Positions 25,297-59,258 are shown, counted from the first letter of the stretch. The stretch: DNA of 64,000 bases from a virus (IMGVR_UViG_3300024999_000038:86269-150268), one strand, 5' to 3'. Notes: generated from the letters alone by a model not told the origin. Made by a program: numbers and translations.

Positions 25297-28058
25297 TACC
25301 GTGAATATCAAATTTCGTGGGATTGTAAGAAAGGAGTAAAATATGAAAGTAATTAAACATGAAAGTTATATTTACCCTAAAGTTGATATGAGTATAAGTT
25401 TTATTTGTCCGAGGTGTCTTACCTCAGTTGTGATCCATATAGAAAAAGAAGGACTATACGGCAATGAGTTATGTGATTGTAATCAAAGATATCAGATTAG
25501 TAAACCAGGACTAATTGATTTTTTCAATCATGAACAACTATAGGAAGGGGGTTTAGATTAATGGAAGAATTAGATATTTTTAGCGTTAGCTTAAAGAAAA
25601 TTGAAGGAACTGTACATGATTTTGAACAAATACTAAGAATTAATCCTATGTTTAGTAGTTTACCTGAAAATAAAGTCAAAGAAATAGAGAATATTGTTAA
25701 TAGTGCTGTTGAAAGTATTCAAATGATTTTGAGAGATTAAATACTAGCAAAGAGTTATTTCGAATGTTTTGAAGAAAGTAGGAAATTAAATGCTTAAAGG
25801 CCAAAATGGAACAACTATCTTGCAAGTAGAAAATGGAGTAGTAAGATTATGCCATGATATGGTTACTTGTAGTTATACTATTGGAATTAGAACTGATAAA
25901 GACTTCCAATGGAAAGATATAAGTAAAGAATTATATGAATTAATGGTTAAAGAATTATCAAATAAAGAAGGAAATAGGTGGTAAAATAATATGAAAGAAA
26001 GGAGGATCAATTCTCATGAAAGATATTTTTAATTTTGAACTAGATGAAAATAATAAAAAGAAATTTCCTAGTTGTGATTTTGTATTCAAAGCAGAAAAGG
26101 AAAATGATGGAAAGTATAAAGTAACTTGGATTGAAGATGGAGAATTAGAACAATCGTATATAGGAGAGAAGAGAATGAAGCAAGGATTAGAAGAAGGGTA
26201 TTGGGTTGTAAAGGATGATTAGAGATGTCAATTCAAAGAATACATTTAAAGGATAAAGGATGGAATTATTAATGAATAAATATAATGAATTAGAGAACCT
26301 AATGTATGCAATCGGAAGACAATTATATCATAAAGATAGAATATTGTATGACTTATTCGATAGTAGATTTAATCATACATATGTCTCATTTGGATATTGC
26401 TCCTCTGAAGAAGATAAAATTCAACAATTAGGAATTATTAATAATCTTATGGAAGAGTTTTCTTTAATTGACTTAATAAAAATGGCGATGTCTCATTCAG
26501 ATTACTATAGATTATATCAATTAAATTGGTGGATTGGTAATTACACTGAAAAGATAAAGGATTATAAATTGGATTGTGAACCAATAGTAAAATTAATAGA
26601 TATTAAAGATGCATTTGATAAAAGAATTAATAAACTAGAAGACGAGAATTTAAACAGTTGGAGAAAATCAGATGATGATATATTGCATTCTCATTATCAT
26701 TGGTGGATAAATAATTTAATGAATAATGAAAATTATGCTATATGGGCCTTACGATACAATGATACAAGAACTTTTGATACTTTTCATCTGAGTAATTGTG
26801 GTGAAAAAATATTCCCTAAAATTATATTGCAGTACATTTTGGATAATCATATAATTCCAGACCAAATTAATAAAAATGCAGAAATAGAGATAATGAGTCC
26901 ATTTAATAATTATGGTACAAATGGTTACAAAATAAAAACATCTTCTAATATGGGCGGAATGTGGTATATGATTTATTTGACAGCTAAAGAATTTCAAGAA
27001 ATATATAAGAGCGTAGGGAGTAAGAAAATAAGTGATATGAATGTAAGACCATTTTTCAGTTATGTAAATAGTTTGAACGAAGGTGATGAGTTAAACGAAA
27101 AATTCTATTTGTATTTTAAAAAATGAACTAAAAATGAAGACTTGGTAGAAAATGATAAATTAAAATCATTGCAGGAGTAGGCTTTCAGGGTTCGGTACAT
27201 GGCATAAAACATGTCTTTCGTTGGATTATAAGGAGAATTATATGCATAAAATAAAAGGATATTGGAGTAAATTTGTTTTAATTCAAATGATAGTAATAAT
27301 ACTTTTATCTATAGTTGGATTGCCTAAAAGTAATTCTGGTATGTATTGGTGGATGGGAGTCACTTTTGTTGATATGATTGCTACTCATCCTGTATTTTAT
27401 GAAGAGGAGGAAGATAATCATGGATTTAGCAGACGTAATTAAAAACTGTAAAGAAGGCGAAGTATATAAAGCTACTTATGCTTTATGGAATAATTGGTAT
27501 ATAACCAAAAGCGTTGGATTTATAAGATATTGTGATGAGAATGGAAATGTATCCAATGAAGATGAAACAATTAAGTTGACTCCTAGTAATTTAAGAGCAG
27601 AATATGAATTGATTAAGGGATAGAAAGGAGCAGTGAATAATGGACGATGGAGGAGTACAAGAAATCAAAGTAATACCATTATGGGCAAGAATCATATCTT
27701 GGATATTTAGTGGAGTGATCACCATTATGGGGATTATAATATTTATTATTGGTTCTTGGAGTCTAGGAAGCAGTATGTTGAAAGAAATTAATACATTTGG
27801 AATGTTAGAATCTTTAATAACATTAGGAATGGGATTTTTAATAATGTTATCTTCATTGTTGTTTGCTACATTATTTGTTTTAATACTAAAACGTTTAGTG
27901 AAATGGAAATGGTTATAAACAATTGAAATTTAATTATATATTGACGAGAGGATGTGATTGTAATGTAGAAATAAATATTTTGTTGGACAATGAATAAAAA
28001 ATAAGCTGTTGGCAATACTATCTACCAAGGGAATAAATTAAAGGTAAGGTGATAGTAT

Positions 28059-28490
28059 ATGCAAGTAGTAAATAAAGTTGCACAACATAATCAACCACAA
28101 CAATTTAATAGAGGAGACATTTACTTAGCTACAGTTGAAAATAATGTCGGAGGGTCAGTGCAAAATATTTGTCAGAGACCAATGATTATAATTTCAAATC
28201 CTATGAGTTTACTGCACTCGCCTGTGATTCACGCAATTCCATTATCTTCTAAGACTTTTAAGCGATGGATTCCAACTCACGTTTCTGTACCTATGGCTAG
28301 TAGTGGTTTATTAAAGGATTCAATTGCACTTTGCGAACAAGTAATGTTGCTCCCGAAAGAGGTTTTTAGTAAAAAAATTGGCACATGCAGTAGTTTAATT
28401 GTAAACAAATTAGAAGAGGGTTTAATGGTACAATTCGGGTTGTTTAATCATAGTCAAAATGTAAGAAACAATGTTGCTTATGCAAATTAA
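28059..28490 (+). CDS. MazF/PemK family protein (orphan, divergent)
   Basis: RGDIYLA, QRPMIIISN, IPLSS, PTHVSV, GLLKDSIALCEQV align with B. subtilis NdoA/EndoA motifs; no MazE upstream. Confidence 0.88.
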   Translation: MQVVNKVAQHNQPQQFNRGDIYLATVENNVGGSVQNICQRPMIIISNPMSLLHSPVIHAIPLSSKTFKRWIPTHVSVPMASSGLLKDSIALCEQVMLLPKEVFSKKIGTCSSLIVNKLEEGLMVQFGLFNHSQNVRNNVAYAN

Positions 28491-28512
28491 AGAAGGAGAG
28501 ATTATTTAAATA

Positions 28513-30111
28513 TTGGGGAAAATGAAAACTACAGAACAGTATAGACAAGATTTAGAAGAATACAATTTAAAATATAATACAAAAATAGAGTTAAAGAATG
28601 GAGTTGAATATAATGGTGCTAATACTAAAATATTACATATTTGTTCGTGTGGTAAAGAGTGGTTAGTTTCACCTTCAGGCGTTATAAATAGTAGTTCGAA
28701 AACAAGTTGTGGTTATACGTTTGCAGAAAAAGGAATCGATAATCTAGGGTATAATTTTTTAGAAAAATATTGGGATTATAAAACAAATAACGAATTAGGA
28801 ATTGATCCTTGGAAAATTAGTTGTAGTTCTGGAAAAGAAGTTTATATATTTTGCCAAGAGAAAGATTATCATGGAAGTTATAAAGTACGTTGTGCTGATT
28901 TTAGTAATGGAAACAGGTGTGGTTATTGTCAAGGATACTATTTGGTTCATCCTTTAGATAGTTATGGACAGTATTTAATTGATTCATTTGGAATAACCGC
29001 ACTAGAACTGTATTGGGATTATAATATAAACACTGTTGATCCTTGGAAGATTACAAAACAATCAAATAAGATGGTATATATTAAATGTCAGAGGAAATAT
29101 TATCATGGAAGTTATGGCATCAGGTGCAATGATTTTATAAAAGGAGATAGATGTGGATATTGTGGAGGTAAAAAAGTACATCTATTAGATAGTCTAGGAA
29201 CGTTACATCCAAAATCACTAGAATTATGGTCAAATATAAACGAAAAATCCCCATATGAATATATGCCTGGGAGCGATATGGAGGTTTGGTTTAAATGTGA
29301 CAACAAGAGACATGAAGATTACCAAAAAAGAATATATAATGCAGTAAACTGTAATTTTGGATGTCCGACATGTTCACAAGAACAAAAAGAATCTATCATG
29401 GCCTCCACACTAAAACAAGTACTAAGATATGAATATAGTCACACAAAATGGGAATATGATGCAGGATTTAAAATAGATAATAGTATTAGTAGGTATGATA
29501 TTTATGTTCCAGAATTGAATAACTTATTAATAGAATGCCAAAGTGAATATCACGATGATGAAAAACATATTATTAACGATCAACTTAAAAAACAGTTTGC
29601 TATTGATAATGGATATGAATATATAGCAATAGACAAAAGAGATTTTTCCATAATAGAAATACTAAGGTTCTTTATACCATACATGGATAAAATTCCTGAT
29701 TATGTACAATTAAATAAAAATACTACAAGAGGTTGGGATATAGAAAACGCTCAAAAATTGTTAGATAGTGGTCATACATATATAAATATAGCTAATATAT
29801 TAGAAACATCAGTTACCGCGATACGTGCAAGTGTAGGAGACAATGGGTTAATCAAACCAAATAATTATACTTTTCAAGGTGAAAATATTGTTTGTCTGTC
29901 TATGGATAATAGTTTAATAAAAACATATAATTCTTGCAGTTCTGCCGCCAAAGATTTAGGAAAAGCAAATGGAACAAGTATTAGTTCATGTCTAACTAAG
30001 AAGCCTCGTTCAGACACAGGGAAAATTCGTGAAACAGCTTTTGGTTTTAAATGGATGTATTTAGTAGATTATGAAAATATGATTAAAGATCAAAATAATA
30101 AACCTCCGTAA
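28513..30111 (+). CDS. Putative homing endonuclease: zinc-ribbon repeats, PD-(D/E)xK nuclease, NUMOD1-like tail
   Basis: Three repeats of WDY..N..DPWKI...C...YHGSY..RC.DF..G.RCGYC; YDIYVPELNNLLIECQSEYH; C-terminal YNSCSSAAKDLG...TAFGFKWMY. Confidence 0.75.
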   Translation: MGKMKTTEQYRQDLEEYNLKYNTKIELKNGVEYNGANTKILHICSCGKEWLVSPSGVINSSSKTSCGYTFAEKGIDNLGYNFLEKYWDYKTNNELGIDPWKISCSSGKEVYIFCQEKDYHGSYKVRCADFSNGNRCGYCQGYYLVHPLDSYGQYLIDSFGITALELYWDYNINTVDPWKITKQSNKMVYIKCQRKYYHGSYGIRCNDFIKGDRCGYCGGKKVHLLDSLGTLHPKSLELWSNINEKSPYEYMPGSDMEVWFKCDNKRHEDYQKRIYNAVNCNFGCPTCSQEQKESIMASTLKQVLRYEYSHTKWEYDAGFKIDNSISRYDIYVPELNNLLIECQSEYHDDEKHIINDQLKKQFAIDNGYEYIAIDKRDFSIIEILRFFIPYMDKIPDYVQLNKNTTRGWDIENAQKLLDSGHTYINIANILETSVTAIRASVGDNGLIKPNNYTFQGENIVCLSMDNSLIKTYNSCSSAAKDLGKANGTSISSCLTKKPRSDTGKIRETAFGFKWMYLVDYENMIKDQNNKPP

Positions 30112-30162
30112 TCAATACATAAATTCTAATAATAAATAATAAAAGGAGAGATAATATAATAA

Positions 30163-30780
30163 ATGGTTGAAACATTAATATTTAGTCTGCTGTGTCTAAA
30201 AACAAAATTTGATCTAAAACTAGGCAAACTCCAAATACATAAAGAATCATACCTAATAAAACCAATGCTAAAAAGATGGAGCATCTATCCTGTAATATTT
30301 ATGTCAATATTCTATGTCTATCTACAATACACAATAATGAATCAGAATTACTATTTTCTTCAATATCAACACATAATAAAGAATGCTATATTAGGTTCAT
30401 ATATGATTCTAGGGCTTGATGTTTTGTTTAGGCATGAAAAGTATAAAGAGTATATTATAGCCTGTTGTAGTCTCTTGTGTGGCTTTACATTGAATAAGAT
30501 TGTAATGCATTTCAATAATAATCTCATGCCAATCTTCCCATCAATATCTTATTCAACAGGTTACACGCAATATGGTATGATTACGAATGCTTCTAAATTT
30601 AGCGATTTTCATGTTCTCGGAGATCATACAACAAGATTGATATTTTTGGCCGATGTGTTTGATATAGGTGGTAGCATTTGGTCGGTCGGGGATATTTTAG
30701 TTAGATTATTTGCTTTTATAATTGTGTATTATGCGGGTAAAGTAGTTAGTAAAATGCATACGAACAAAATATTGAATTAA
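30163..30780 (+). CDS. DUF5317-like membrane protein
   Basis: GFTLNKIVMHFNNNLMPI and HVL...TRLIFLADVFD...SVGDIL motifs; several hydrophobic helices. Confidence 0.7.
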   Translation: MVETLIFSLLCLKTKFDLKLGKLQIHKESYLIKPMLKRWSIYPVIFMSIFYVYLQYTIMNQNYYFLQYQHIIKNAILGSYMILGLDVLFRHEKYKEYIIACCSLLCGFTLNKIVMHFNNNLMPIFPSISYSTGYTQYGMITNASKFSDFHVLGDHTTRLIFLADVFDIGGSIWSVGDILVRLFAFIIVYYAGKVVSKMHTNKILN

Positions 30781-30796
30781 TAAATAAATATAAAGC

Positions 30797-30825
30797 TTGC
30801 ATTACACTCTTACATATGGTATACT
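30797..30825 (+). promoter_or_regulatory. sigmaA-like promoter for receptor-1/agrD
   Basis: TTGCAT-17 bp-TATACT with extended TG. Confidence 0.7.
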
Positions 30826-30865
30826 TGTTTTAGATTAAGAAACGAATAAGAAAGAGGTAATACAT

Positions 30866-31687
30866 ATGCAGAGTGTAACAAATGCTTTGTTGAATACAGT
30901 ATTTGTAAGTTTACCAGAGGAAACATTTTACGCAATGATGACATTGATATTTTTGAAAAGATATGATCTATTAGATTTTAGAATGTGGAAAGAAAACATT
31001 ACAACACTTATGATACCTATAATTCCAGTATCAATATTAATTAATATATTTAGATATATTATAATTATAGATAAAATACAAATGATGATTATTACAATAG
31101 TGATATTTTACATATTGTTATTATATATTGTTATAAAATATAAAGTTGAAGATATTGAAAGAATACATATGAAAGTTTTATTAAACTTAGCATATAGCGT
31201 AGCAATATGGGTGTTCTTAGAAGAGATAACCTATCCATCATTATTGTTTTTGATGAATTACCCACTCGAATTTATATCAAATAATATATTTTGGAATTTT
31301 ATTTTAAGTGTTCCTTCAAGGATAATTGCTATGGTTATAATAATATACAACATAGTTAAAAATAGTAACGAAATAAGCAATATAGAAGTTCTTGACGTCA
31401 TTACTAATAATAAACTTTATCGAAGAATAATGCTTTTCTGCACAATGTCATTTATTTTATTATCATTATTCTTAATTAAACTTATTTGGTGTAATAAAAT
31501 ATTTGACAATAAGGTTCCTTTGTTTGAAAAGATTATTATTACTGAATCGCTTTTTGTTTTGCCAGTAGTTGTAATATTCCTAATAATTATATTAATCAAC
31601 AATCTTCTTGTAAAAGAAAAACAAATACAACAGTCTTATGAAAATCTTGTTATGCAAGACGACATAATGCTTGATGTAGAAGATTGA
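30866..31687 (+). CDS. Polytopic membrane protein, putative kinase-less peptide receptor 1
   Basis: About 7 hydrophobic segments; directly upstream of the agrD-like gene; ends EKQIQQSYENLVMQDDIMLDVED with no HisKA/HATPase; paralog of 33689-34552. Confidence 0.6.
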   Translation: MQSVTNALLNTVFVSLPEETFYAMMTLIFLKRYDLLDFRMWKENITTLMIPIIPVSILINIFRYIIIIDKIQMMIITIVIFYILLLYIVIKYKVEDIERIHMKVLLNLAYSVAIWVFLEEITYPSLLFLMNYPLEFISNNIFWNFILSVPSRIIAMVIIIYNIVKNSNEISNIEVLDVITNNKLYRRIMLFCTMSFILLSLFLIKLIWCNKIFDNKVPLFEKIIITESLFVLPVVVIFLIIILINNLLVKEKQIQQSYENLVMQDDIMLDVED

Positions 31688-31709
31688 TATGAAAGGAGGT
31701 GAAAAATTA

Positions 31710-31826
31710 ATGAAAAAGTACGCAATTATCGCTGGAGTGGTTGCTTTGTCAGCCGCAATGTTCTCAAATGTATTTGCTTCTATGTTCTTTTCTCATCAAC
31801 CAAAAACTCCTAATTGCATGAAATAA
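31710..31826 (+). CDS. agrD: AgrD-like cyclic lactone autoinducer propeptide, 38 aa (MKKYAIIAGVVALSAAMFSNVFASMFFSHQPKTPNCMK); not in the ORF track
   Basis: Strong RBS GAAAGGAGGTG; hydrophobic leader; x-x-F-F-x-HQP-K-x-P motif as in clostridial AgrD (CLWFT|HQPEEP, CPWII|HQPKVP); agrB 1 kb downstream. Confidence 0.88.
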   Translation: MKKYAIIAGVVALSAAMFSNVFASMFFSHQPKTPNCMK

Positions 31827-31838
31827 TTTTACCATACA

Positions 31839-31868
31839 TATAGGGAAGGACTTCGGTTCTTCCCTATA
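31839..31868 (+). terminator. Hairpin after agrD with cUUCGg tetraloop
   Basis: TATAGGGAAGGAC-TTCG-GTTCTTCCCTATA, 13-bp stem with one G-U. Confidence 0.8.
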
Positions 31869-31908
31869 AATCTAATATAAAATATTTTATAAATTTACTA
31901 AAAATCTA

Positions 31909-31936
31909 TTGACATATCTCCCAAATATGGTAAGAT
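31909..31936 (+). promoter_or_regulatory. sigmaA-like promoter for HTH-MazF/agrB
   Basis: TTGACA-16 bp-TAAGAT with extended TG. Confidence 0.65.
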
Positions 31937-32003
31937 GTATTTAATGAAGTTGTAAATAAATTATATATACATCATTATAAATTGAAAAGGGAGTTGTGTT
32001 ATT

Positions 32004-32792
32004 ATGTTTGAAAAATTTATTGGTAAAAAAGAGAGTACTATTACTGAGGAGAATACAAAAAAGGATTTCAAAAAGTTGGCTACATATGTTACTTTAGCCA
32101 AAGGCCCAAGAACTATTAATGGATTCGCAGCAGACTGCAAAACAAATGCTGACTATCTAGCTGATATTATCCATGTAAAAATCAATTCTTATCCTCAAGT
32201 TCAATTTCTGAAAATAATATCTGAAAATTCACAAGGCAGAGTTTCATTAGATGATCTTAAATTATCTTGTGGATATTCTTTATATGAACATAATGATATG
32301 GAGCAAATAAAAAATATTAATGTTCGCAGAGGATGGTTTTGTTACGTAAATCTAGGCCAAGTTTTGGACTCGGAATATGGGGGAAATCGAATGTGTTTGG
32401 TAGTGCAAAACGACGTAGGGAATCATTTCTCAAGCACATCAATTATTTTACCATTGACTTCTAGAAAATCAAAAGTAAAGCTTCCTACTCACGTCGAAGT
32501 TGGAATAAAAAATTGCGGATTACCGCAAGATTCGATTGTTAGTTGTGAGCAAATTCGTTGCGTATCGAAAAGGAGACTTATTCAAAATGGAATAGTCCAG
32601 AAAGTATCAGAATGTCCTCCAGATGTAATGTTAAAGGTAGAGGTGGCTTTATTAAAAGCACAAGGAGTTATACATCTTAAAATGAATGAACAGGAAGCTA
32701 TTCAGCACTTAATGAACATGAATACCCAAAAAACATACCAGTATCAAAATAATTATGCTAGTGCAGGACAGCAGGTGGCCTATGCACGATAA
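32004..32792 (+). CDS. XRE-like HTH fused to a MazF/PemK endoribonuclease domain
   Basis: N-terminal AKGPRTINGFAADC...YLADII..P...LKIISENSQGRVSLDDLK..CGY HTH-like segment; C-terminal RRG, SEYGGNR, QNDVGNHFS, PLTS, KLPTHVEV, DSIVSCEQIRCVSKRRL with catalytic Arg and Thr positions retained. Confidence 0.85.
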   Translation: MFEKFIGKKESTITEENTKKDFKKLATYVTLAKGPRTINGFAADCKTNADYLADIIHVKINSYPQVQFLKIISENSQGRVSLDDLKLSCGYSLYEHNDMEQIKNINVRRGWFCYVNLGQVLDSEYGGNRMCLVVQNDVGNHFSSTSIILPLTSRKSKVKLPTHVEVGIKNCGLPQDSIVSCEQIRCVSKRRLIQNGIVQKVSECPPDVMLKVEVALLKAQGVIHLKMNEQEAIQHLMNMNTQKTYQYQNNYASAGQQVAYAR

Positions 32793-32808
32793 AAGAAAGG
32801 AAGATTAA

Positions 32809-33516
32809 ATGTTTTCAGTTCAAGATATTTCTGATCAATTGGCTACTAAACTATCAAAAAAAATATCATTAGATAAATTTAAAGAAGTTTGGGGGATCGT
32901 TATAAAAATATTCCCATCACTTGCTGATAAGCTTAATCTTGAACAAATAAAATCAATAAATGACTTATTAGGTTTATATAGTTATGGGATAACGGTATTT
33001 GTAGGATTACTATTCAAAGGCCCATTATTGATTATAATATCAATTATCTTTGGAATATTTACACCAATTATGTTTGTGGTAACCACATTTTCAAGTTTTA
33101 GGGTTGTAGCAGGTGGTTACCATATGCAGACATATTTAAGGTGTTGGATTGTAAGTTTTGTCACATTTATTGGATCTGCACTTATAGTCCAACACACACT
33201 TCAATATTGGTCTACCCAAAATATCTCTTCACTCTTCATATTTTGTATTTTAATGGGATTATATATAATTTTTAGATATATTCCTCGCGACACACCCAAT
33301 AAGCCAATTACAGAGCCATTGGAGATAGCAAAGTTTAAAAAATGGTCGTTATACTACTTAATTTCATGGGTAACAATAATGACCATTTTCTTATTCTTTA
33401 ATCTAAAATTAATTGTTATTTCAAGTTGTTTTGGATTATTATTGGAATTATTTTCAATAAGTAAAATTGGTTATAGTCTATATTCCCTTGTAGATGATAT
33501 TGGTATACATAAATAA
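32809..33516 (+). CDS. agrB: AgrB family peptide-processing membrane cysteine peptidase
   Basis: YSYG, FRVVAGGYHMQTYLRC (catalytic His/Cys), PRDTPNKPI; multiple TM helices. Confidence 0.93.
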   Translation: MFSVQDISDQLATKLSKKISLDKFKEVWGIVIKIFPSLADKLNLEQIKSINDLLGLYSYGITVFVGLLFKGPLLIIISIIFGIFTPIMFVVTTFSSFRVVAGGYHMQTYLRCWIVSFVTFIGSALIVQHTLQYWSTQNISSLFIFCILMGLYIIFRYIPRDTPNKPITEPLEIAKFKKWSLYYLISWVTIMTIFLFFNLKLIVISSCFGLLLELFSISKIGYSLYSLVDDIGIHK

Positions 33517-33688
33517 TATCTCACAAACCACCTTACTATCCCACCTTATCCCATAATTGCAATACTTTATTCAATTTATTTTTCCAACATTTATGATATA
33601 TTTACAGCAACAAGTAATAGCACATAATAACTGCCCCTTACTCAAACCACACCCACAAACTAAATAAAAAGAAGGAAGGAAACCCTAT

Positions 33689-34552
33689 ATGTCTATTACC
33701 AATGCTGTACTAAATCTACTATTTGTCTCCATCCCAGAAGAAGCATTTATAGCAATAATAGCTATAACATTCCTAAATAAACTAGATAATCTTTTCGATA
33801 TCTATATGTGGAAGAACAATCTCAAATGGCTTATGATAGCAACATTGCCCACATCAATATTAATTTGTGTTTTACGATTTGTAATGTCTGTTCCCCAAAA
33901 TATTGTAGTAAAATTAGCCATAATTATAATGATTGCTTCAATGATATACATAGTAATTAAAAACTCTGACAAAATTACTATTCTATTAATATTTAAAACA
34001 GCAATGTTTACATTAGCAGGATTTGTAATTACAGGAATATTGGAATACTCATATTGCCCAATAATATTCTCATTATTACATAAACCACAAGAATTTTTTA
34101 ATAATGTTTTCCTCTATAATTTTCTATTAGGTTTACCTGCAAGAGTCCTTTACACCTGTATTATCACTTTTATCATAATGAAGAAAAATGGCAAAGTTAA
34201 AGTAAATTTATTTGATACTTTAGTCAAAAGCAAATTAATCATTGGTATTTTCATTGCTACAATATTATCTGTAGTTTCATTAATTGCCTATGTTGCTAAA
34301 TTGATAGAAAATGAAAGCATTTTGTTTAGTTTTCAATTCATTGATCAATTTATTATCATTGTAATAATCACATCTGTACCAACTATTTTAATCACATTGT
34401 TATTGATAGTTATTAATTATTTAATATCAGGTGAGAAGGAAAATCAGCAAATGTACGAGAATGCTATGGGTAGTAGGGATGAGAATGAGGATATAAATGA
34501 GGATGGTAATAATAGTAGCGATGAAGATATTTATGAAAATTATTATGAATAA
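33689..34552 (+). CDS. Polytopic membrane protein, putative kinase-less peptide receptor 2
   Basis: Paralog of 30866-31687 (S.TNA.LN..FVS.PEE.F, D..MWK.N, LE...Y.P, N...NF.L..P.R, EK..QQ.YEN); highly acidic C-terminal tail; no kinase domain. Confidence 0.6.
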   Translation: MSITNAVLNLLFVSIPEEAFIAIIAITFLNKLDNLFDIYMWKNNLKWLMIATLPTSILICVLRFVMSVPQNIVVKLAIIIMIASMIYIVIKNSDKITILLIFKTAMFTLAGFVITGILEYSYCPIIFSLLHKPQEFFNNVFLYNFLLGLPARVLYTCIITFIIMKKNGKVKVNLFDTLVKSKLIIGIFIATILSVVSLIAYVAKLIENESILFSFQFIDQFIIIVIITSVPTILITLLLIVINYLISGEKENQQMYENAMGSRDENEDINEDGNNSSDEDIYENYYE

Positions 34553-34723
34553 TTATTATAAATAGGAGGCGATAATAATGCTCTAAAAATAGTTCCAAAG
34601 CACTAAGACTATTGACCTATATCAAATGGCAATATTCCTATTCTAATAAATAAATAAGATAAAACAATGTCGAAAAACCGAACATAACATCCCAAAATAA
34701 CATAATTATTGGTAATTTTGTTC

Positions 34724-34752
34724 TTGATTCTTGAACAAATGTTCTATATAAT
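34724..34752 (+). promoter_or_regulatory. sigmaA promoter with a Firmicutes LexA (Cheo) box in its spacer
   Basis: TTGATT(34724)-17 bp-TATAAT(34747); GAAC-AAAT-GTTC at 34733-34744. Confidence 0.72.
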
Positions 34753-34833
34753 AATATCAAGGAGGTATTGAAAGAACAAAGATATAATTTGTTGAATATC
34801 CAAATATTAGAAAATAAAGGAGAGATTTTAAAT

Positions 34834-35241
34834 ATGAATTGTATTAAAACAGAAGACAATGTGAGATATACATGGGCCATCAAAGATTCAAAAGGTAATT
34901 TTGCCCATAAGGGCAGTATACGTAAAATCAATAAAGATACTTGGCAATACATATCGTTTAAGACATTCTCCCAAGAAGCTAGGGGATACACATCCAAGGA
35001 ATCTGCTGAAAAAGCATTGGCTTTCTTAAATAAAAAGAATGACATTGCAGGATTCAAATTTGTTTTTCATATTGAGTGTCTTAACTTAAATAAAATAATT
35101 GATGAAAACACCATATTCCAAGGTAAAAATATGCTTATATATGAAAAAGAAGTGGTATCAGCTGCTTATAAAATGGGAAAAGTGGCAAAAACATGTGTCT
35201 GTACATGTTTACCAACTCTAATATTAGCCAGTATAATTTAA
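34834..35241 (+). CDS. Hypothetical protein under a putative SOS-controlled promoter (candidate antirepressor/inducer)
   Basis: RBS AAAGGAG before ATG 34834 (the track start TTG 34768 has only about 2 nt SD spacing); no known domain recognised. Confidence 0.5.
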   Translation: MNCIKTEDNVRYTWAIKDSKGNFAHKGSIRKINKDTWQYISFKTFSQEARGYTSKESAEKALAFLNKKNDIAGFKFVFHIECLNLNKIIDENTIFQGKNMLIYEKEVVSAAYKMGKVAKTCVCTCLPTLILASII

Positions 35242-35257
35242 TTAATTAACTCCACGC

Positions 35258-35300
35258 ACAATAAACTACTCTGAGATCATGTCACTGAGTAGTTTATTGT
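35258..35300. repeat. Perfect 14-bp inverted repeat (terminator or operator) before the yopQ-like promoter
   Basis: ACAATAAACTACTC-15 nt-GAGTAGTTTATTGT. Confidence 0.7.
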
Positions 35301-35319
35301 AGAAATAAAGTATTTTTCC

Positions 35320-35349
35320 TTGACATTATTGCACAACTCATGTTATTAT
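35320..35349 (+). promoter_or_regulatory. sigmaA-like promoter of the yopQ/yopR-like repressor operon
   Basis: TTGACA-18 bp-TATTAT with extended TG. Confidence 0.65.
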
Positions 35350-35381
35350 ATATACATTAATGATGTGAAGGAGAGATATTT

Positions 35382-36752
35382 ATGCTTAAAGAAAAATCGG
35401 TTGCACTCATGAGGGAACTAAATGTGTTAATTAAGAAGTATAGTTCAAACGACAAGGTAAGAAAATTAATTGTAGAAGAATTTGATAAAAGAAATATGAA
35501 GGGCAGTTTAGCGGTCGGCATCTTAAATGAAAATAGAGAGCTATCCACATTAGATATTGATGAAAGCAAAGATGTAATAATGTTATTTATTTTCACTATG
35601 AGTATGTATAATGCATTGACATATAAAGAGGAAGAAGATAAAGAGGCGTTGGGAGAAATTGAAGAAGGGTTAAGAATTGATCCTAAAAATTATTTTACTG
35701 AAATTGAAATTGAAAACCTAAATGACTATAAGTTTGAAAAGAAAATAGACAAAAAAGACGAAGTTATTATTTTCCCCAAAATGAGTAGAATTGCCCCTGA
35801 TTTCTTTTCAGGCTATATGTCAGGAAAGCATTTTGCAGAATTAGATGCAGGAAATGAATTTATCTATAATTTTAAGACTCAGCGTGACCCAATTATTGAT
35901 GTATCTGGAATGAAGAGGATACATTTAAATAAAACAAATGCAAAAGAAATTAGAGATGGCCTAATCTCAAAGAATCAATTCCCAACTACCATAGTAGTAA
36001 ATGTTCTTAAAGACGGTGAAGACGAGATATATTATGATGAGAAAACAGGCGATTTGTCTATTATTTCAGGTACTAAAAACCTTGTTGATGGAATGCATAG
36101 AAAAGTTGGTAATAGTTTGGCTCTCGCTATTGATCCAGACTTGGAGTTTAATTGGTTATTAGTTGTAACAAACTATAGTGAAATTAGAGCACAAAAATAT
36201 ATGGTGGAAATTAACAAGCAACAAAAAATGAAACAAGAACATATTAAAAATATGGATACTGCCAGTCTTGGAAATATTGTTGTTGATGTTATTAAAGATA
36301 TCAATAGTTCTGAATTTGCTGGACATATCAAAGATAGCGACAAGGAATTAGAACATGGAGGTTTAACTAGGAAGTCAATTTTAACTTTAGCAATTGAGGA
36401 AATATACAAAGATAAACTTGAAAACAAAACATTCATAAAACCTATCGCCAACCACATTACAAACGTTATGGATCATATTATTGCATTGAGAGTTGATGAG
36501 TTTATGAAATATCCTGAAGCCACACGTAAAGTAAGCTATATCAACCACAAGAATATGTTTGCAGGATATGTAGCTTTATCTGAGAGACTATATGGAGTTG
36601 AAAAATGGGATGACCTCCTTGAGGAAATTTTAGATAAAATTGATTTCAGTATGAAAAATTCTTTTTGGGAAGATATTGGATTGGGCAAAGAGTCCGATAT
36701 GAAGAAAACTACACGAAACAATCTATACGAATTCTTTCAAAAATTAATTTAA
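35382..36752 (+). CDS. SPbeta YopQ (SroE)-like protein with a DGQHR/DndB-like ParB-Srx domain
   Basis: RIDPKNYFTEIEI, IYNFKTQR, LNKTNAKEIRD, LVDGMHR and TNYSEIRAQ match the YopQ pattern as I recall it; about 460 aa; upstream of the YopR-like gene. Confidence 0.75.
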   Translation: MLKEKSVALMRELNVLIKKYSSNDKVRKLIVEEFDKRNMKGSLAVGILNENRELSTLDIDESKDVIMLFIFTMSMYNALTYKEEEDKEALGEIEEGLRIDPKNYFTEIEIENLNDYKFEKKIDKKDEVIIFPKMSRIAPDFFSGYMSGKHFAELDAGNEFIYNFKTQRDPIIDVSGMKRIHLNKTNAKEIRDGLISKNQFPTTIVVNVLKDGEDEIYYDEKTGDLSIISGTKNLVDGMHRKVGNSLALAIDPDLEFNWLLVVTNYSEIRAQKYMVEINKQQKMKQEHIKNMDTASLGNIVVDVIKDINSSEFAGHIKDSDKELEHGGLTRKSILTLAIEEIYKDKLENKTFIKPIANHITNVMDHIIALRVDEFMKYPEATRKVSYINHKNMFAGYVALSERLYGVEKWDDLLEEILDKIDFSMKNSFWEDIGLGKESDMKKTTRNNLYEFFQKLI

Positions 36753-36768
36753 CAAAGGAGACTTTAAA

Positions 36769-37812
36769 ATGACTAAAAATGAAATCATTGATGAAACTAA
36801 AATCCAAGAAGTCGAAGAAAAATTAATGTTTGAAGTTGATCCTGAAGTTAAGGAAGAATTTTTAGAAAAGCAATTAAAATCAACTAGAAGTTATTATCGG
36901 TATATTTTAAAACTTGCCGATGAATTTGAAGTTAAATTAGGAAAACCAATTTACAATTTCAATACTGAAGAAAGAGATGAGTTATTGACTGTTCAATATA
37001 AAAACAAAAATATATTTGCATTTCAAACTGTTTTGTCTCCATTAAAAACTTATGTTGATTTTTGTATATCTCCTAAGAATTTAGTACGACACAATGAAAA
37101 TCGCTTTAGTAGTATCCTTACTTCAAACTACAAAGTTTATATCAGTAAACAAGCAAAAGAAAATTCTTATATCCCTTTATCTGAATGTAGAGAATTTCAA
37201 TCTAAATTAGCGAATTATCAAGACATGTTAATTCTTGAATTGCCAAATCTAGGAGTTAGAGGTCGTACTGAAAAAGGAAATACTCTTGAGGAACTGGTTA
37301 ATCTAAGGGAAAAAGATATTGAATGGGAGAAAAAGAGATTACATCTTACCAAAAACAATGGTGAAGAAAGATGGATTGAAGTTGATGATTACACTTTAGA
37401 TTTACTCAAGAAAACCATCAATCAAGATTTTTATATATCCAATAATGGATTAAAGACAAAACCGAACGACGATGGGGTATATGAACGTACAGAAAGGGGA
37501 AGAATGATTAATAAAACTGAATATGTATTTAGAATTCCAGGTAAGAATAAACATGGTAAGGTTGAATACCAATTTTTTGCTAGTAGAATCCAACGTATTC
37601 AAAAATGGTTAGGTAAACCGTATATTAGCATTAGTAATCTGTATTTTTCTGCTATTATAGAATACTCAAAGAAACTAAAAGAAGAGAAAGGTGAATTGAT
37701 TAGAGAAGATTATATTTCAATCAATCAAAGATTTGAATTTGGAGAAGATGGTGAGAAATATGTCTTTAAAACTAGAGAGCTTGTTGAATCATATCTTGAC
37801 GATGAGAGGTAA
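36769..37812 (+). CDS. SPbeta YopR (SroF/MrpR)-like repressor with tyrosine-recombinase fold
   Basis: EVKEEFL, E..LGKPIYNF, LKTYVDFCI, LANYQDMLILEL..GVRG, EELVNL, NG.ERWIEV, Y...NG; canonical HxxR motif absent. Confidence 0.78.
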   Translation: MTKNEIIDETKIQEVEEKLMFEVDPEVKEEFLEKQLKSTRSYYRYILKLADEFEVKLGKPIYNFNTEERDELLTVQYKNKNIFAFQTVLSPLKTYVDFCISPKNLVRHNENRFSSILTSNYKVYISKQAKENSYIPLSECREFQSKLANYQDMLILELPNLGVRGRTEKGNTLEELVNLREKDIEWEKKRLHLTKNNGEERWIEVDDYTLDLLKKTINQDFYISNNGLKTKPNDDGVYERTERGRMINKTEYVFRIPGKNKHGKVEYQFFASRIQRIQKWLGKPYISISNLYFSAIIEYSKKLKEEKGELIREDYISINQRFEFGEDGEKYVFKTRELVESYLDDER

Positions 37813-37817
37813 ATACT

Positions 37818-38222
37818 ATGCAGAACACACTATCTGAGATGTGGAGAAAATACAATTTGCTTTTCTCTTTTAAAAATGAGATGAATAAACGAGGGTACGC
37901 TAGTAGGGATTTGTATAGTATCCATGTTCAATTATGTTTGTTAATGGAATTGATTGAAATCGAAAGTATTGATATCCTAGATGATTTGTTAAAGAAAAAA
38001 ACTTATTTCAGACTGTTGAGGAAAATCAATAGAGGTATTGAATATTTACATGAAATTGTAGATTTACCTGAGAATTGGTCACTTAACACTATTGAGAAAG
38101 ATACGGACGCATGGATTGATCCAAATGTTCTAATATTTACTACGAAATCAAAAGTTGCAGTATTCAGTAAATTGTCCCGTAAGAATGATGGAAGTTTGTA
38201 TATTGATGGAAAATTTCAATAA
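37818..38222 (+). CDS. Hypothetical protein in the repressor operon
   Basis: 134 aa, tightly coupled to the yopR-like gene. Confidence 0.6.
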   Translation: MQNTLSEMWRKYNLLFSFKNEMNKRGYASRDLYSIHVQLCLLMELIEIESIDILDDLLKKKTYFRLLRKINRGIEYLHEIVDLPENWSLNTIEKDTDAWIDPNVLIFTTKSKVAVFSKLSRKNDGSLYIDGKFQ

Positions 38223-38236
38223 GAGGTGTATTTTTT

Positions 38237-38644
38237 ATGAACGTAGGAGAAAAAATTTGCCTATACAAAGAAAGATTAAACTTTAGAGACTATCAAGAAT
38301 TTGGTAGAGCAGTTGGTATCAGTGGCAATTGGATAAATGAAACATCTAAGAAATCAGAGATTAAACAAATCAACGATTTAGGTTATTTGGTTAAATTATG
38401 TGGATTTTTAGGAATAACGATAGATGAATTTTTAAGAGATGATATAATTGAAACAGATGAATCAATTGAACTTAAAATTATTGATGCAAATTCGGAAGAT
38501 ATTGGTATTTTGCTCAATAATATGATATTATTACTAGGAAAGGATGGTATAAAAATAGACGGAGCGTTAATGAATGACAAGAGCAAAGAGATTTGTATAG
38601 ATAGCCTTGCGGTGGTAAGAACACTAGTCAAGCAACATTTATAA
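38237..38644 (+). CDS. XRE-family HTH transcriptional regulator (YopS position)
   Basis: GEKI..YKERLN...YQEFGRAVGISGNWINE...LVKLCGFLGITIDEFL. Confidence 0.75.
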   Translation: MNVGEKICLYKERLNFRDYQEFGRAVGISGNWINETSKKSEIKQINDLGYLVKLCGFLGITIDEFLRDDIIETDESIELKIIDANSEDIGILLNNMILLLGKDGIKIDGALMNDKSKEICIDSLAVVRTLVKQHL

Positions 38645-38659
38645 TGGAGGTCGATAATT

Positions 38660-39520
38660 ATGGTTCGAAAGAATTACAGGTCTGTAGACACATATGAGAT
38701 GGATGATATTGAAGTCTACTCATTAGTTAAAAATGGTAGTCTAAGGGCATTTCCTTCAAGGTTTTGGGAAGGTGTAATAGGTCTTCAAACTTCCAAGAAA
38801 ATTCTAAAATATGTTTTCGAAACTCTATTAAATTGGTCTATCGAAGACATCAAAGTTAAGGCCACTAGAGATATGTTTGAAGAATATAAATTAGTTGGAA
38901 TGGTTAGCACTGCATTTGATGGTAGTATGTATATTGCTATTGGAGAAACTTATCCAGAACTTAAAGAATGGGCAGATGAATTATATCAAACAAACGAACA
39001 TGCTGATTTTGTTTATAGGAAATATTCAGACGAAGAATTAATTGGTATTCTTCAGGAGAAAGCAAAGGAATTAAAAAGAATACCAAAAGGAGTTGATATG
39101 AAAACTCCCAGTAGTGGAATCTATAATAGAAGATTTGGCTCATGGGAAAAATCATTGATGAAAGCAGGATTAATTGAAGATATTTATAAGAATGTTGACT
39201 TTGAAAAACACTCAAAAGAATCTGTAATATCTAACTTAAAAGAACTTTTTTCAAACAAAGAGAGAGTGTTAGATAAGAAAGAGATACTTGCTATTTATCC
39301 AGAAGGATTAATAAAAGAATATTTTGGAACTTATAATAACCTTGAGAAAGTTATTATAAATGAGTATACCAAAAGGGATCTTATCAAAATCTTAAAAAAT
39401 AAGAAGGGAAAATTAGGTAGAACTCCAAGCAATAAAGATATGAAGTTTCCAATGGCTATTGTATTCATAGATAAATTTGGGAGTTGGCAGGAGGCGATTG
39501 ATAAATTGGAGAAAACTTAA
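38660..39520 (+). CDS. DUF4046-like protein with homing-endonuclease-associated repeats (putative DNA-binding)
   Basis: FPSRFWEG..LKYVFETLLNW N-terminus; repeated YS.EELI..L..KA..L.R.P...DM..P.....RFGSW units. Confidence 0.6.
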   Translation: MVRKNYRSVDTYEMDDIEVYSLVKNGSLRAFPSRFWEGVIGLQTSKKILKYVFETLLNWSIEDIKVKATRDMFEEYKLVGMVSTAFDGSMYIAIGETYPELKEWADELYQTNEHADFVYRKYSDEELIGILQEKAKELKRIPKGVDMKTPSSGIYNRRFGSWEKSLMKAGLIEDIYKNVDFEKHSKESVISNLKELFSNKERVLDKKEILAIYPEGLIKEYFGTYNNLEKVIINEYTKRDLIKILKNKKGKLGRTPSNKDMKFPMAIVFIDKFGSWQEAIDKLEKT

Positions 39521-56306: not shown

Positions 56307-59258
56307 GAAAGGAGAAAATATAAGTAATGAAATATACAATTGGTCAAATGGTATCTGTTCCAAAATACAATGTGCAATATGGAGAAATTACAGGTATTCA
56401 TATATACAATAGAGAAAAGGGAGATTCAGTAAATTCTATTGATTATGATATTAGTTTTTATTCAGATGGATGTTTGTTTAGAGAATCATATAGTGAAGAA
56501 CATATTGAAGAAATTTAGAAAGAAGGATGAATTAACAATGAGTAACAATAAAAAAGAAATATCAATTGATCGTGTAAAACAAATTACTCAAGAAGAATTA
56601 CAAAAATATATACAAGGTAATTTCTCAGAAGAAAGTTTAAGAAAAATGATTCAAGGACAATTAGAGAATTCTGGGAGAGAAATTGTTTTTAAAGAACTAG
56701 GATTAAAATATGATAGATGGGATCATAATTGGAATTTAGATTCATCTGGAGCAATTACAAATATGATTAAAAACAATTCACATATTAGAGACGTTGGGAA
56801 AGAAGTAATCCAAGAAATCATTAAACTAGTAACCCCTGAAGATATTTTAGGGTTACTAAATAAAAATAATATTCAATCATTGAAGAAAATATATAGAGAA
56901 ACTTTGATGAGTTATTTTGAAAAAGAAGTTAGAAATTCAGCTATACAACATGGAACCGATCAAGCAGAAAAATTATTTAAGAAATATTTATATGAAAGAG
57001 TAGATGAACAAATTCAGGCAGATGAAATTTAACATTTATGGGAAAGGAAGATAAAAAATATGGAATTTATCAAAGTAAGAGCAAAAGAAGGATTTACTCT
57101 ATTCAATAAAAAGGAAGAAATTTTAGCCAAGATAGAAGAGGGAGAGGTTTTTCGTGCTAGGTTATCTAATATCTCTGATGAATATTTTGCAAAAGACTCT
57201 AAAGGTAGAGAATTTTATGTTGGAGAGTTGGATTTTGATAGCAACCTAAAATTAGATGATTGTTTTGAATTAACTAATGTAATCAATATAAAATAAAATA
57301 GTTCTTACTCAATTATATGAATAGCAAATAGGTCGCCAGACAGAAAGATAGAAAGGGAGTTAGATAAATATGATATTAAAAATTATGTCAAAAGAAGGTC
57401 AATCGAACTATACATCTGCGGAGGAGTTTACAACTCATAAAGCAATTGTTAAAGGCATATATGATGATTTTCAATCTAAATATGAGAAATCTGAGATCAT
57501 GTATTATAATGACAAACACAATCTTATGGTTAGGAAAATCCAAGAGCTTACAGGAATTGACAATCAGATAATAGACTTTAAAATCAACTGTGAATTTGAA
57601 GAATTAGACTTGATTTGTTGTATATATCCAAGAACTAAAAGTAAAGAACACAATATAATTGTAACAAATCAAATGACATTTCTTATGAGTGATGATGGAA
57701 AAACCATAGAAAGGTTAATATAGGTGATTGAAATGGATGAAGTTTTATTCATGGGAATGAATCTGCCAAATGAAATTGATAAGTTTCTTAATGAGAAAGA
57801 ATTGCTTATTACTAATGGTATGAGTGGTGCTGAATTAAAGTCATATAGGTTAGGAGTTAAAAATACATTGTCTGCACTATCCTCAATTATAAATGGTTTT
57901 GATGATTATTTAGTAGTACATACGGACAATGAAAAATATACCTGCGAAATGAATATAAAAGACTTACAGAAAATGTTTAATAATATCTAAATAATAAAGT
58001 GGTTTGGCGACTTATTTATTATTTGTATAATTGAGTAAAGTTTTACGATAAGCTTATGGTTTGAAAGGACTTGATTATTAATGTTTAAAATTGACGGAGT
58101 TGAATATACAGAAATGGATGGTTATTTATATAAGAAGGAATGTGAAGTTTTAAAAAGTAAAATAGAAAATTTAAGACTTGCTCTAGAATGTTTAAAAGAT
58201 GAATATATTCAGTATGTAGATAATGCTTGTCATTGTGATGAATATGGTGAAAATGAAGAATGTGCTTATTGTTTTACTAAAAGAATCTTAAAGGAAACTA
58301 AATAAAAGGGGAAATAAATAATGGTTGAACAAGATATGATAATTTTTAGGCATGTAATGCCATATGATAAAATTTTAAATAATAAAGATGCTTTATATGA
58401 TAAAGACGTTGATGAAGTATATGCCTCTGCTAGATATTTAGCTTTAAGAGAGTTAAACAAACATGGATTTAGAGTATTGCAATTCATAGTTACCGAAGAT
58501 AGTCTTGTAACTGGAGAATGGGTTTTAGTAGAAAAATTAAAATGAAAATAAAGGAGATGTAATATTATGACTTGTATAGAATGTGAATTTTACTCAGAGG
58601 ATGATTTAACAGGATTGTCTCCACAAGAGAAATTAGATCATGTAAGTAGTCACTGTATAGATTCTAATAATCCAGATTTCAATGAATGGGCAAGAGAATT
58701 TGGCAGAGGCGTTACTAAAGAGGAATCATTATCACATCCTAAGTGGTGTGGTAAAATTGATAATCCTGAGAAGACAGAGGAGTATTATACTAAGGAAGAA
58801 ATTAGTGAGGCAGTTAAAGAAGCAAAAGAACATCGTAAGTTCGCTATAAAGTCATATTCTTTATCCATAAATGATATGGCGATTGGAGGAACAATGTATC
58901 CAATTTATACAATAATTAGAGCATTGCAACGCTATGAAAAATAGTATTTTGGTATCGTTGGTTCTTTAGATGGAAAAACCACAGCTAAAGAAATCGTAGA
59001 AGAAATGATTAAAAGCAAATAAAAAATATTTGAAATAAAAGGAGTATTTTTAATTTAAGAAAGGAGGTGTTTATATGGACGCATTTAAATTCATTAACAT
59101 CACTAGAAAATATAAGAAATGTCCAGATTGTGGGAGTAGTTGGAAAGATACAAAATTACAAGTCAGTGTAAAAGATGAAATTGTAACAATTAGTTGTGAA
59201 TGTGGTTTCTTAAAATTGGTTGATGAAAATAATAAAGAGATTAAAGGAGGAGAATAGA

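Follow-up and report, generated by a model that had tools for sequence, protein, structure and literature searches.

Predicted kinase-less AgrC-type sensors encoded in a phage agr cassette with MazF and lysogeny-module genes

Agr signalling is textbook two-component signalling. In a 64,000-nucleotide (nt) stretch of a virus record (IMGVR_UViG_3300024999_000038:86269-150268; this whole stretch is called the window), the peptide gene agrD and the gene for the peptidase AgrB are accompanied by two related membrane protein genes, X1 and X2, neither of which encodes a kinase. What are these proteins, and how could they pass a peptide signal across the membrane? By sequence homology, X1 and X2 are AgrC-type sensors that lack the kinase, and their signalling step is directly testable; that they act as stand-alone sensors, with X1 sensing the phage's own cyclic peptide and signalling without phosphorylation, is the account that we judge somewhat better than even. 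The source is a 150-kb IMG/VR virus record with an estimated completeness of 71%, the window DNA was found in groundwater metagenomes, all from one study, with no RNA data set listed among its sources, and the window itself has a low GC content (~28%) with all open reading frames (ORFs) of at least 150 amino acids (aa) on the + strand. The two genes in question are the following.

30866..31687, + strand: X1, predicted kinase-less AgrC-type sensor with ~7 transmembrane segments (TMs), 273 aa, tail KEKQIQQSYENLVMQDDIMLDVED; the fast-evolving copy, adjoining agrD.
33689..34552, + strand: X2, paralogue of X1, 287 aa, slow-evolving; its long acidic tail ends in EDIYENYYE, and no peptide gene adjoins it.

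Putative ribosome-binding sites precede both start codons, AAGAGG 5' of the ATG at 30866 and GGAAGGA 5' of the ATG at 33689. In a BLASTP comparison, X1 and X2 aligned end to end over 281 columns with 32% identity (E 8e-28), including the motifs FVS.PEE.F, MWK.N, NF.L..P.R and EK..QQ.YEN. The last 30 residues contain seven D/E and two K/R in X1 and eleven D/E and one K/R in X2, and neither tail contains a histidine. Since agrD begins no more than 25 nt after the X1 stop codon, and X2 is followed by a 215-bp spacer and then a 157-aa ORF without a Pfam or PHROG match, there is no space for a kinase remnant; a HATPase_c_5 search of the whole 150-kb record also gave no match. These results confirmed what the original prediction, made from the sequence alone, had read at this locus, namely two aligning paralogues with these motifs, acidic tails, and no kinase remnant downstream. 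Neither protein fell into a named family in Pfam, NCBIfam or PHROGs, tblastn of X1 and megablast of the cassette described below found no match among cultured phages and plasmids, and neither AgrC-type sensors without a kinase nor an X-agrD-MazF2-AgrB phage cassette turned up as described in our literature searches.

Are X1 and X2 truncated kinases? A word-indexed search yielded 24 homologues of 263-279 aa, and phmmer, run exhaustively over 1.8 billion representatives, yielded 115, all of 326 aa or less. No Pfam domain, including the SPOB_a/HisKA-type DHp, was detected in 89 full-length members of the family, or in X1 and X2 themselves, and a profile search limited to longer proteins gave no fused X-kinase form, although this last result is weak evidence. 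Because all homologues are this short and lack a kinase, X1 and X2 are not truncated kinases, and the proposal of kinase-less receptors is thus supported, since the HisKA/HATPase-bearing homologues that were named as its refutation did not occur among the 115. The bacterial members come from metagenome-assembled genomes and chromosomes of Bacillota and Clostridia; in the long forms found among them, an apparent DHp remnant did not reach significance by itself (E 0.074, versus 0.24 with the target reversed).

We then compared the family with kinases from a sample of 400 genomes of Clostridia, the class that holds a bacterial X carrier, of which the X family hidden Markov model (HMM) matched 20. 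Among its weaker matches was a 452-aa protein, aligned at residues 9-239, whose remainder consists of SPOB_a and HATPase_c_5 and whose gene adjoins that of a LytTR regulator. An hhalign comparison of the X family with the family of this kinase gave 97.8% probability and E 1.1e-12 over 265 columns; in a control, the reversed kinase sensor gave E 0.5 versus 6.5e-11 for the real target, and a phage-only X profile still matched the kinase sensor with E 1.9e-7. Furthermore, an AgrC-type ORF beside agrB, cut by the end of its locus and with SPOB_a slightly below the Pfam cut-off, matched X with E 3.3e-9. Three other AgrC-like kinases did not match the X profile, so that X represents one sensor subtype. 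In the profile alignment, the X tails align with the kinase linker and the start of the first DHp helix, and a TM1 motif is common to both (VSIPEE in X, VSVPES in the kinases), which marks it as a feature of the sensor fold. From these profile alignments, we conclude that the membrane domain of X1 and X2 is homologous to the sensors of AgrC-type (HPK10) kinases found in Clostridia genomes, so that the relationship to AgrC sensors is borne out for the kinases found here.

In seven other genomes, an X-like N-terminal half of ~160 aa is followed by a separate ORF with two TMs, SPOB_a and HATPase_c_5, and then by AgrB, with an agrD-like ORF seen in two of the seven loci. One of them (L182), once extended, also contains a LytTR regulator and is thus a complete agr operon whose AgrC comes in two pieces. 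In these two-gene loci (L151, L152, L154-L157 and L182; genomes G293, G096, G233, G072, G161 and G186), the kinase ORF measures 282-302 aa, and the break falls at the same position in several genomes.

An AlphaFold2 (AF2) model of X1 (predicted local distance difference test score, pLDDT, 82; predicted template modelling score 0.73) has seven long helices and a C-terminal helix that leaves the membrane. The lysines and arginines of X1 are concentrated in loops 1, 3 and 5; by the positive-inside rule and the homology to kinase sensors, the N-terminus is predicted to be outside and the tail inside, which supports the cytoplasmic tail that had been assumed for both proteins. Foldseek of the model against the PDB returned no match with E of 0.001 or below, and the best hit in a wide VIA search (Z 7.8) was within helical-bundle noise. 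The ESM Atlas listed only unnamed clusters, the nearest with 7,917 members and a score of 0.89, which is a lead only.

Which signal could such a sensor read? The neighbouring features of the window are given below.

28059..28490, + strand: MazF1, stand-alone PemK/MazF-type RNase, 143 aa, ending ...VAYAN (Pfam PemK_toxin, 6e-15; PDB MazF matches from 4e-13).
28513..30111, + strand: Zn-ribbon (DUF4379 x3)/NUMOD1 protein, 532 aa, variable insert (Pfam).
30163..30780, + strand: DUF5317 membrane protein, directly upstream of X1 (Pfam PF17248, 5e-17).
31710..31826, + strand: agrD, 38 aa from an internal ATG behind GGAGG (TIGR04223 AgrD, 1.3e-4, above cut-off).
31841..31866, + strand: GC-rich hairpin, GGGAAGGAC-TTCG-GTTCTTCCC, directly after agrD (sequence inspection).
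32004..32792, + strand: MazF2, fusion of a helix-turn-helix (HTH) domain and MazF, ending ...VAYAR (Pfam PemK, 3e-22; in 15/15 phage cassettes).
32809..33516, + strand: AgrB peptidase, 235 aa (Pfam AgrB PF04647, 4.7e-35; the sole AgrB in the record).
34768..35241, + strand: 157-aa ORF that separates the agr cassette from the repressor genes (no Pfam/PHROG match; relatives in most related phages).
35382..36752, + strand: DndB-fold (YopQ-like) protein (Pfam DndB, 5e-7, 29.5 bits versus a cut-off of 29.1; phrog_5732).
36769..37812, + strand: MrpR/YopR-like recombinase-fold repressor candidate (Pfam MrpR_N_CB, 4e-13; relatives also match MrpR_C_cat).

The gene order is thus MazF1, variable Zn-ribbon/NUMOD insert, DUF5317, X1, agrD, MazF2, AgrB, X2, 157-aa ORF, DndB-fold and MrpR-type. 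A viral-contig scan and assemblies encoding homologues provided 14 further phage loci, 15 with the window; a scan with a degenerate DNA pattern gave mostly chance matches (real loci, 4/120). X-agrD-MazF2-AgrB is kept in all 15; DUF5317 accompanies it in 12 of these loci and MazF1 in 11, eight have a second X, and the DndB and MrpR genes follow the cassette in every phage locus whose fetched flank extends that far.

The agrD orthologues begin with MKKYA, and the predicted ring of the window's peptide is SMFFS, followed by HQPKTP. The predicted rings differ in almost every phage (SMFFS, SYFWT, SWLFS, SWFFA, SYFIS, SWFWL, SWLGA, SLMWL, SWYLL, CLAAW, SAFLW, CFAVW and SAIIW). By pairwise identities in the seven phages that carry both X copies, X1 and AgrB were the fastest-evolving cassette proteins and X2 was among the slowest. 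X1 was less conserved than MazF2 in all nine phage pairs with a MazF2 identity of at least 60%, AgrB was low too, and X2 exceeded MazF2 in eight of the nine. Between the window and L002, for example, the identities were 42% for X1, 63% for AgrB, 82% for MazF2 and 84% for X2, and between L180 and L179, they were 39%, 52%, 69% and 92%, respectively. Within X1-type proteins, TM1, cytoplasmic loop 1, TM2 and the tail are conserved, and TM3, TM6 and outer loop 6 are variable; the tail reads QDD[IV]MLDVED and is near-invariant, although the overall identity of the orthologues is 40-50%. In a pair of phages with X1 proteins 70% identical and the predicted rings SWLFS and SWLGA, the changes cluster in TM3, outer loop 4, TM5, TM6 and outer loop 6, while TM1, loop 1 and the tail hardly change. 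The co-diversification of X1, AgrB and the peptide is the pattern of agr specificity groups and would fit a role for X1 as cognate sensor, with an intracellular interface that is conserved.

In a maximum-likelihood tree, the X2 copies form a single clade with 100/100 support and short branches, nested among upstream copies of the same phage group, indicating that X2 arose by duplication within the phage lineage. Since X2 is conserved across phages with differing peptides, the variable peptide made by the phage itself is probably not what X2 senses. The original prediction had suggested, among other options, that the two receptors split the task, one sensing the self peptide and the other a host peptide; the split gains indirect support from the divergence of X1 and AgrB with the peptide and the conservation of X2, and the host signal is a possibility.

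The bacterial members of the family were examined at 27 loci, 26 of them assessable for agrD, with flanks of mostly 1.5 kb only. An agrD-like ORF lies within a few bases 3' of X in 22 of the 26 (15/15 in the phage loci), agrB is adjacent in seven of the 27, as agrB-X-agrD or divergently, and where AgrB does not adjoin X, the genome encodes one of the same subtype at another site, where it lacks an agrD of its own. A soluble XRE-family regulator occurs within ~1.5 kb of X in 12 of the 27 loci, and no kinase or LytTR gene was found beside the X-agrD pairs in the flanks examined. These agrB/X/agrD/XRE sets are a candidate phosphorylation-free agr circuit in Clostridia. Kinase-free sets were observed at L161, L146, L165, L166, L169, L150, L167 and others, and the bacterial XRE neighbours have in common a C-terminal motif, roughly [DN]xx[FY][IV]x[LY][AL]...K.

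MazF2 combines an XRE-fold N-terminal domain (residues ~17-93, pLDDT ~90) with a MazF domain (105-224) and a C-terminal extension, and keeps the equivalents of Arg25 and Thr48 of Bacillus subtilis MazF. A VIA search with its AF2 model matched MazF with Z 18 and XRE/Cro-type HTH proteins with Z 8-9.3 (about 35 of the 50 entries listed). A profile comparison of the N-terminal domain with the bacterial XRE neighbours was not significant, so that the match is by fold only; judged by this modelled fold, MazF2 is the phage counterpart of the XRE regulators beside the bacterial X-agrD pairs.

How, then, might X1 signal? We propose that AgrB makes a predicted Ser-lactone with the ring SMFFS, for which X1 is the likeliest cognate receptor. 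X1 and X2 would be ~7-TM proteins, N-out/C-in, with ~25-40 cytoplasmic residues, lacking the DHp histidine and the ATPase domain. The binding site would lie in the outer, variable half of the X1 bundle (TM3, TM5-TM6, and outer loops 4 and 6), and its occupation by the peptide would shift the conserved cytoplasmic face, made up of loop 1 (LKRYDLLDFRMWK), the acidic end and the KEKQIQQxYEN helix next to the membrane. From there, the signal may be relayed by protein-protein contact rather than phosphotransfer, with a partner bound or released. The likeliest partner would be the universally co-encoded XRE-HTH-MazF2, whose DNA-binding or RNase activity could feed the adjacent SPbeta-type DndB/MrpR lysogeny module, and X2 probably reads a conserved host or pan-phage signal, or modulates X1. 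Paralogy, family membership, homology to kinase sensors, gene linkage and evolutionary rates were established here; ligand binding, partner and effect on lysogeny are inferred. In phi3T, MazF has been documented as a node of the arbitrium decision between lysis and lysogeny (PMC10769878), and MrpR is the SPbeta repressor (PMC10516654).

Several observations weigh against this account. The record is ~71% complete, so that a kinase or regulator could lie elsewhere in the genome, and an XRE gene adjoins only 12 of the 27 bacterial loci within flanks of mostly 1.5 kb. The tail is not uniform in the family, since some phage X2 proteins end neutrally and the bacterial long forms end in a ~60-aa helical extension. 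No solved structure resembles the X1 model, leaving no pocket to inspect. Finally, co-diversification with AgrD and AgrB would be equally expected of a processing or export helper.

MroQ-like CPBP/Abi intramembrane proteases are marked by the motifs EExxxR, FxxxH and HxxxN/D. That X is a helper in AgrD maturation or export, a membrane protein that binds the autoinducing peptide or AgrD and works with AgrB in leader removal or peptide release, functionally like MroQ, instead of serving as a receptor, is the strongest of the alternatives that we considered, and yet an unlikely one. The X gene immediately precedes agrD and is frequently part of an agrB-X-agrD operon, and the protein diversifies together with AgrD and AgrB and carries family-wide conserved intramembrane acidic residues (the PEE motif in TM1 and E119); MroQ of Staphylococcus aureus is a precedent for a second membrane factor in the biosynthesis of the autoinducing peptide (10.1101/2021.12.29.473670). 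However, the X fold is homologous to kinase sensors, and the TM1 PE motif that is common to both points to a sensor rather than a catalytic feature. The family has no conserved histidine or cysteine, and X1 and X2 gave no Pfam Abi match. X2 and some bacterial X copies lack an adjacent agrD, and the conservation of the cytoplasmic loop and tail points to a partner inside the cell.

Histidine kinases are dimers. X could belong with a separate kinase, either as its sensor subunit in trans or as a dominant-negative partner; for the phage, this would be an AgrC-type kinase of the host. By pairing with the kinase in the membrane, X would confer, block or re-tune peptide sensing. The natural two-gene AgrC forms do place the sensor on a polypeptide other than that of the kinase, and X2 is conserved across phages with differing peptides, as for a conserved host target. 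Nevertheless, the break in the split forms lies inside the sensor (TM1-4/5, then two TMs with the kinase) and does not separate a whole sensor from a kinase, and the bacterial X-agrD flanks examined show XRE genes and no kinase or LytTR. We consider this reading improbable. The existence of a stand-alone bacterial agrB/agrD/X/XRE system also argues that the X design was not originally an anti-host device, although the receptors may still serve as dominant-negative partners or sponges for host AgrC or host peptide.

The least probable of the three is that the acidic X tails act like the C-terminus of MazE and silence MazF1 and MazF2 at the membrane as long as no peptide is bound: neither MazF has a recognisable MazE, the catalytic Arg and Thr/Ser are retained in both, the X1-type tail is almost invariant, and phage MazF inhibitors exist in arbitrium phages (PMC10769878), but bacterial members of the X family have no MazF neighbour, distant phage lineages keep MazF2 although their upstream X ends ...RDD, ...EDDMSV or ...DDDF and their X2 ends neutrally, the phage L001 has two MazFs and one X, and X1 and X2, both 7-TM proteins, lack the N-terminal AbrB/RHH DNA-binding domain of MazE by Pfam and NCBIfam.

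The preferred account, of X1 as a stand-alone sensor of the phage peptide, can be placed in a wider picture that we offer tentatively: the phages would communicate by a second, new mechanism, in which a cyclic Agr peptide acts on lysis or lysogeny through X1 and its direct contact with the XRE-HTH-MazF effector, X2 eavesdrops on a host or pan-phage signal, and the same AgrB/AgrD/X/XRE circuit is an unrecognised form of quorum sensing in Clostridia.

Further observations concern the other parts of the cassette. The MazF1 and MazF2 proteins of nearly all related phages (L001, L002 and L170-L176) have in common the C-terminal motif V-A-Y-A-[N/R], with the variants MAYA, VSFA and IQYA, which looks like a degradation tag or docking peptide. 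The hairpin after agrD is a possible terminator or attenuator; a terminator scan did not call it, and the promoter/terminator scan showed no enrichment over shuffled sequence. A TTGACA-16-TAAGAT element with an upstream TG lies ahead of MazF2 at 31909-31936, and, together with the hairpin, this promoter-like sequence suggests that X1-agrD and MazF2-agrB may be separate transcription units. The Zn-ribbon slot is empty in L001 and occupied by unrelated ORFs in L002 and L003 (300 aa, and 411 aa with DUF7487); the DUF4379 units of the window's protein are treble-clef zinc fingers, and its gene looks like a mobile homing-endonuclease-type insert. None of 24 bacterial DUF5317 loci examined contained DUF5317 beside agr genes, indicating that its link with X is specific to these phages, and literature searches on DUF5317 returned nothing relevant. 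Of 399 Clostridia genomes sampled, 75 contain DUF5317; in several of them (for example G070, G159, G265 and G342), it lies within open frames of ~530-630 aa and may there form the membrane part of a larger protein.

The cassette parts also differ in their relationships. The window and L180 are 85-86% identical in DndB and MrpR and only 27-33% in X1 and MazF2, and the window and L176 are 87% identical in MazF1 and 25-38% in X1, AgrB and MazF2. These contrasts between the window (26000-39000) and L170-L180 show that modules are shuffled among phages and indicate recombination between cassette parts.

A widespread kinase-less sensor tied to agrD, and often to agrB and XRE, implies a new way of peptide signalling across the membrane. 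If this is true, phage communication would extend to cyclic peptides and Clostridia-type hosts, with a cassette that occupies the place of arbitrium in SPbeta-like phages and shows pherotype-like diversification. The variable X1 and the conserved X2 offer a natural specificity pair, with a short synthesisable peptide and candidate partners encoded next door.

Finally, we compared the locus with known systems. It resembles MazE-MazF type II toxin-antitoxin pairs, such as EndoAI/EndoA of B. subtilis (PDB 4ME7), in that two MazF-fold RNases with their catalytic residues are encoded near acidic C-terminal peptides; here, however, there is no MazE fold or gene, and a 7-TM protein supplies the acidic peptide as its C-terminus. 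The arbitrium system (AimR-AimP-AimX of SPbeta and phi3T) likewise has a peptide cassette immediately 5' of a repressor module of the DndB/YopQ and MrpR/YopR type and a peptide that varies among related phages, and MazF is involved in its decision (PMC10769878). The two systems are not homologous and resemble each other in position and logic only, since arbitrium uses an imported linear hexapeptide and a cytoplasmic TPR receptor with a host-encoded MazF, whereas the predicted cyclic peptide here would be made by AgrB and met by a membrane sensor, with phage-encoded MazF; indeed, no domains of an arbitrium-type TPR receptor AimR or linear AimP were detected in the scanned cassette ORFs.

Compared with the canonical agrBDCA system, AgrB and AgrD are present in the phage, and no LytTR AgrA was found above threshold in the ~71% complete record; the only LytTR-like trace was a sub-threshold fragment (16 bits, E 1.2e-3, 31/98 profile positions) in an 88-aa open frame at window positions ~57892-57984 (G000:C1:144160-144252), probably a chance match. 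The agr operon of Clostridium perfringens strain 13 includes two upstream hypothetical ORFs, CPE1563 and CPE1562; its agrB mutant was complemented by a plasmid with CPE1563, CPE1562, agrB and agrD, and plasmids with agrB or agrB and agrD and only ~400 bp upstream failed to do so (PMC2706048). With AgrC/HPK10 receptors (S. aureus AgrC, clostridial AgrC-like kinases and VirS), the X proteins have in common, as compared with the AgrC-type kinases found here, a homologous polytopic N-terminal sensor, the linkage to agrB and agrD, and the joint diversification of sensor, AgrB and peptide. They differ in lacking the DHp histidine, HATPase_c_5 and a LytTR partner, in ending 25-40 residues past the last TM, and in having as neighbours an XRE regulator in bacteria or XRE-HTH-MazF in phages. 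A phage parallel in gene content is the Clostridioides difficile phage phiCDHM1, which has agrB, agrD and an AgrC-type sensor reported as an agrC kinase gene (PMC3901668), whereas the predicted sensor here is kinase-less and duplicated, and lies in a conserved cassette with MazF genes adjoining the lysogeny module.

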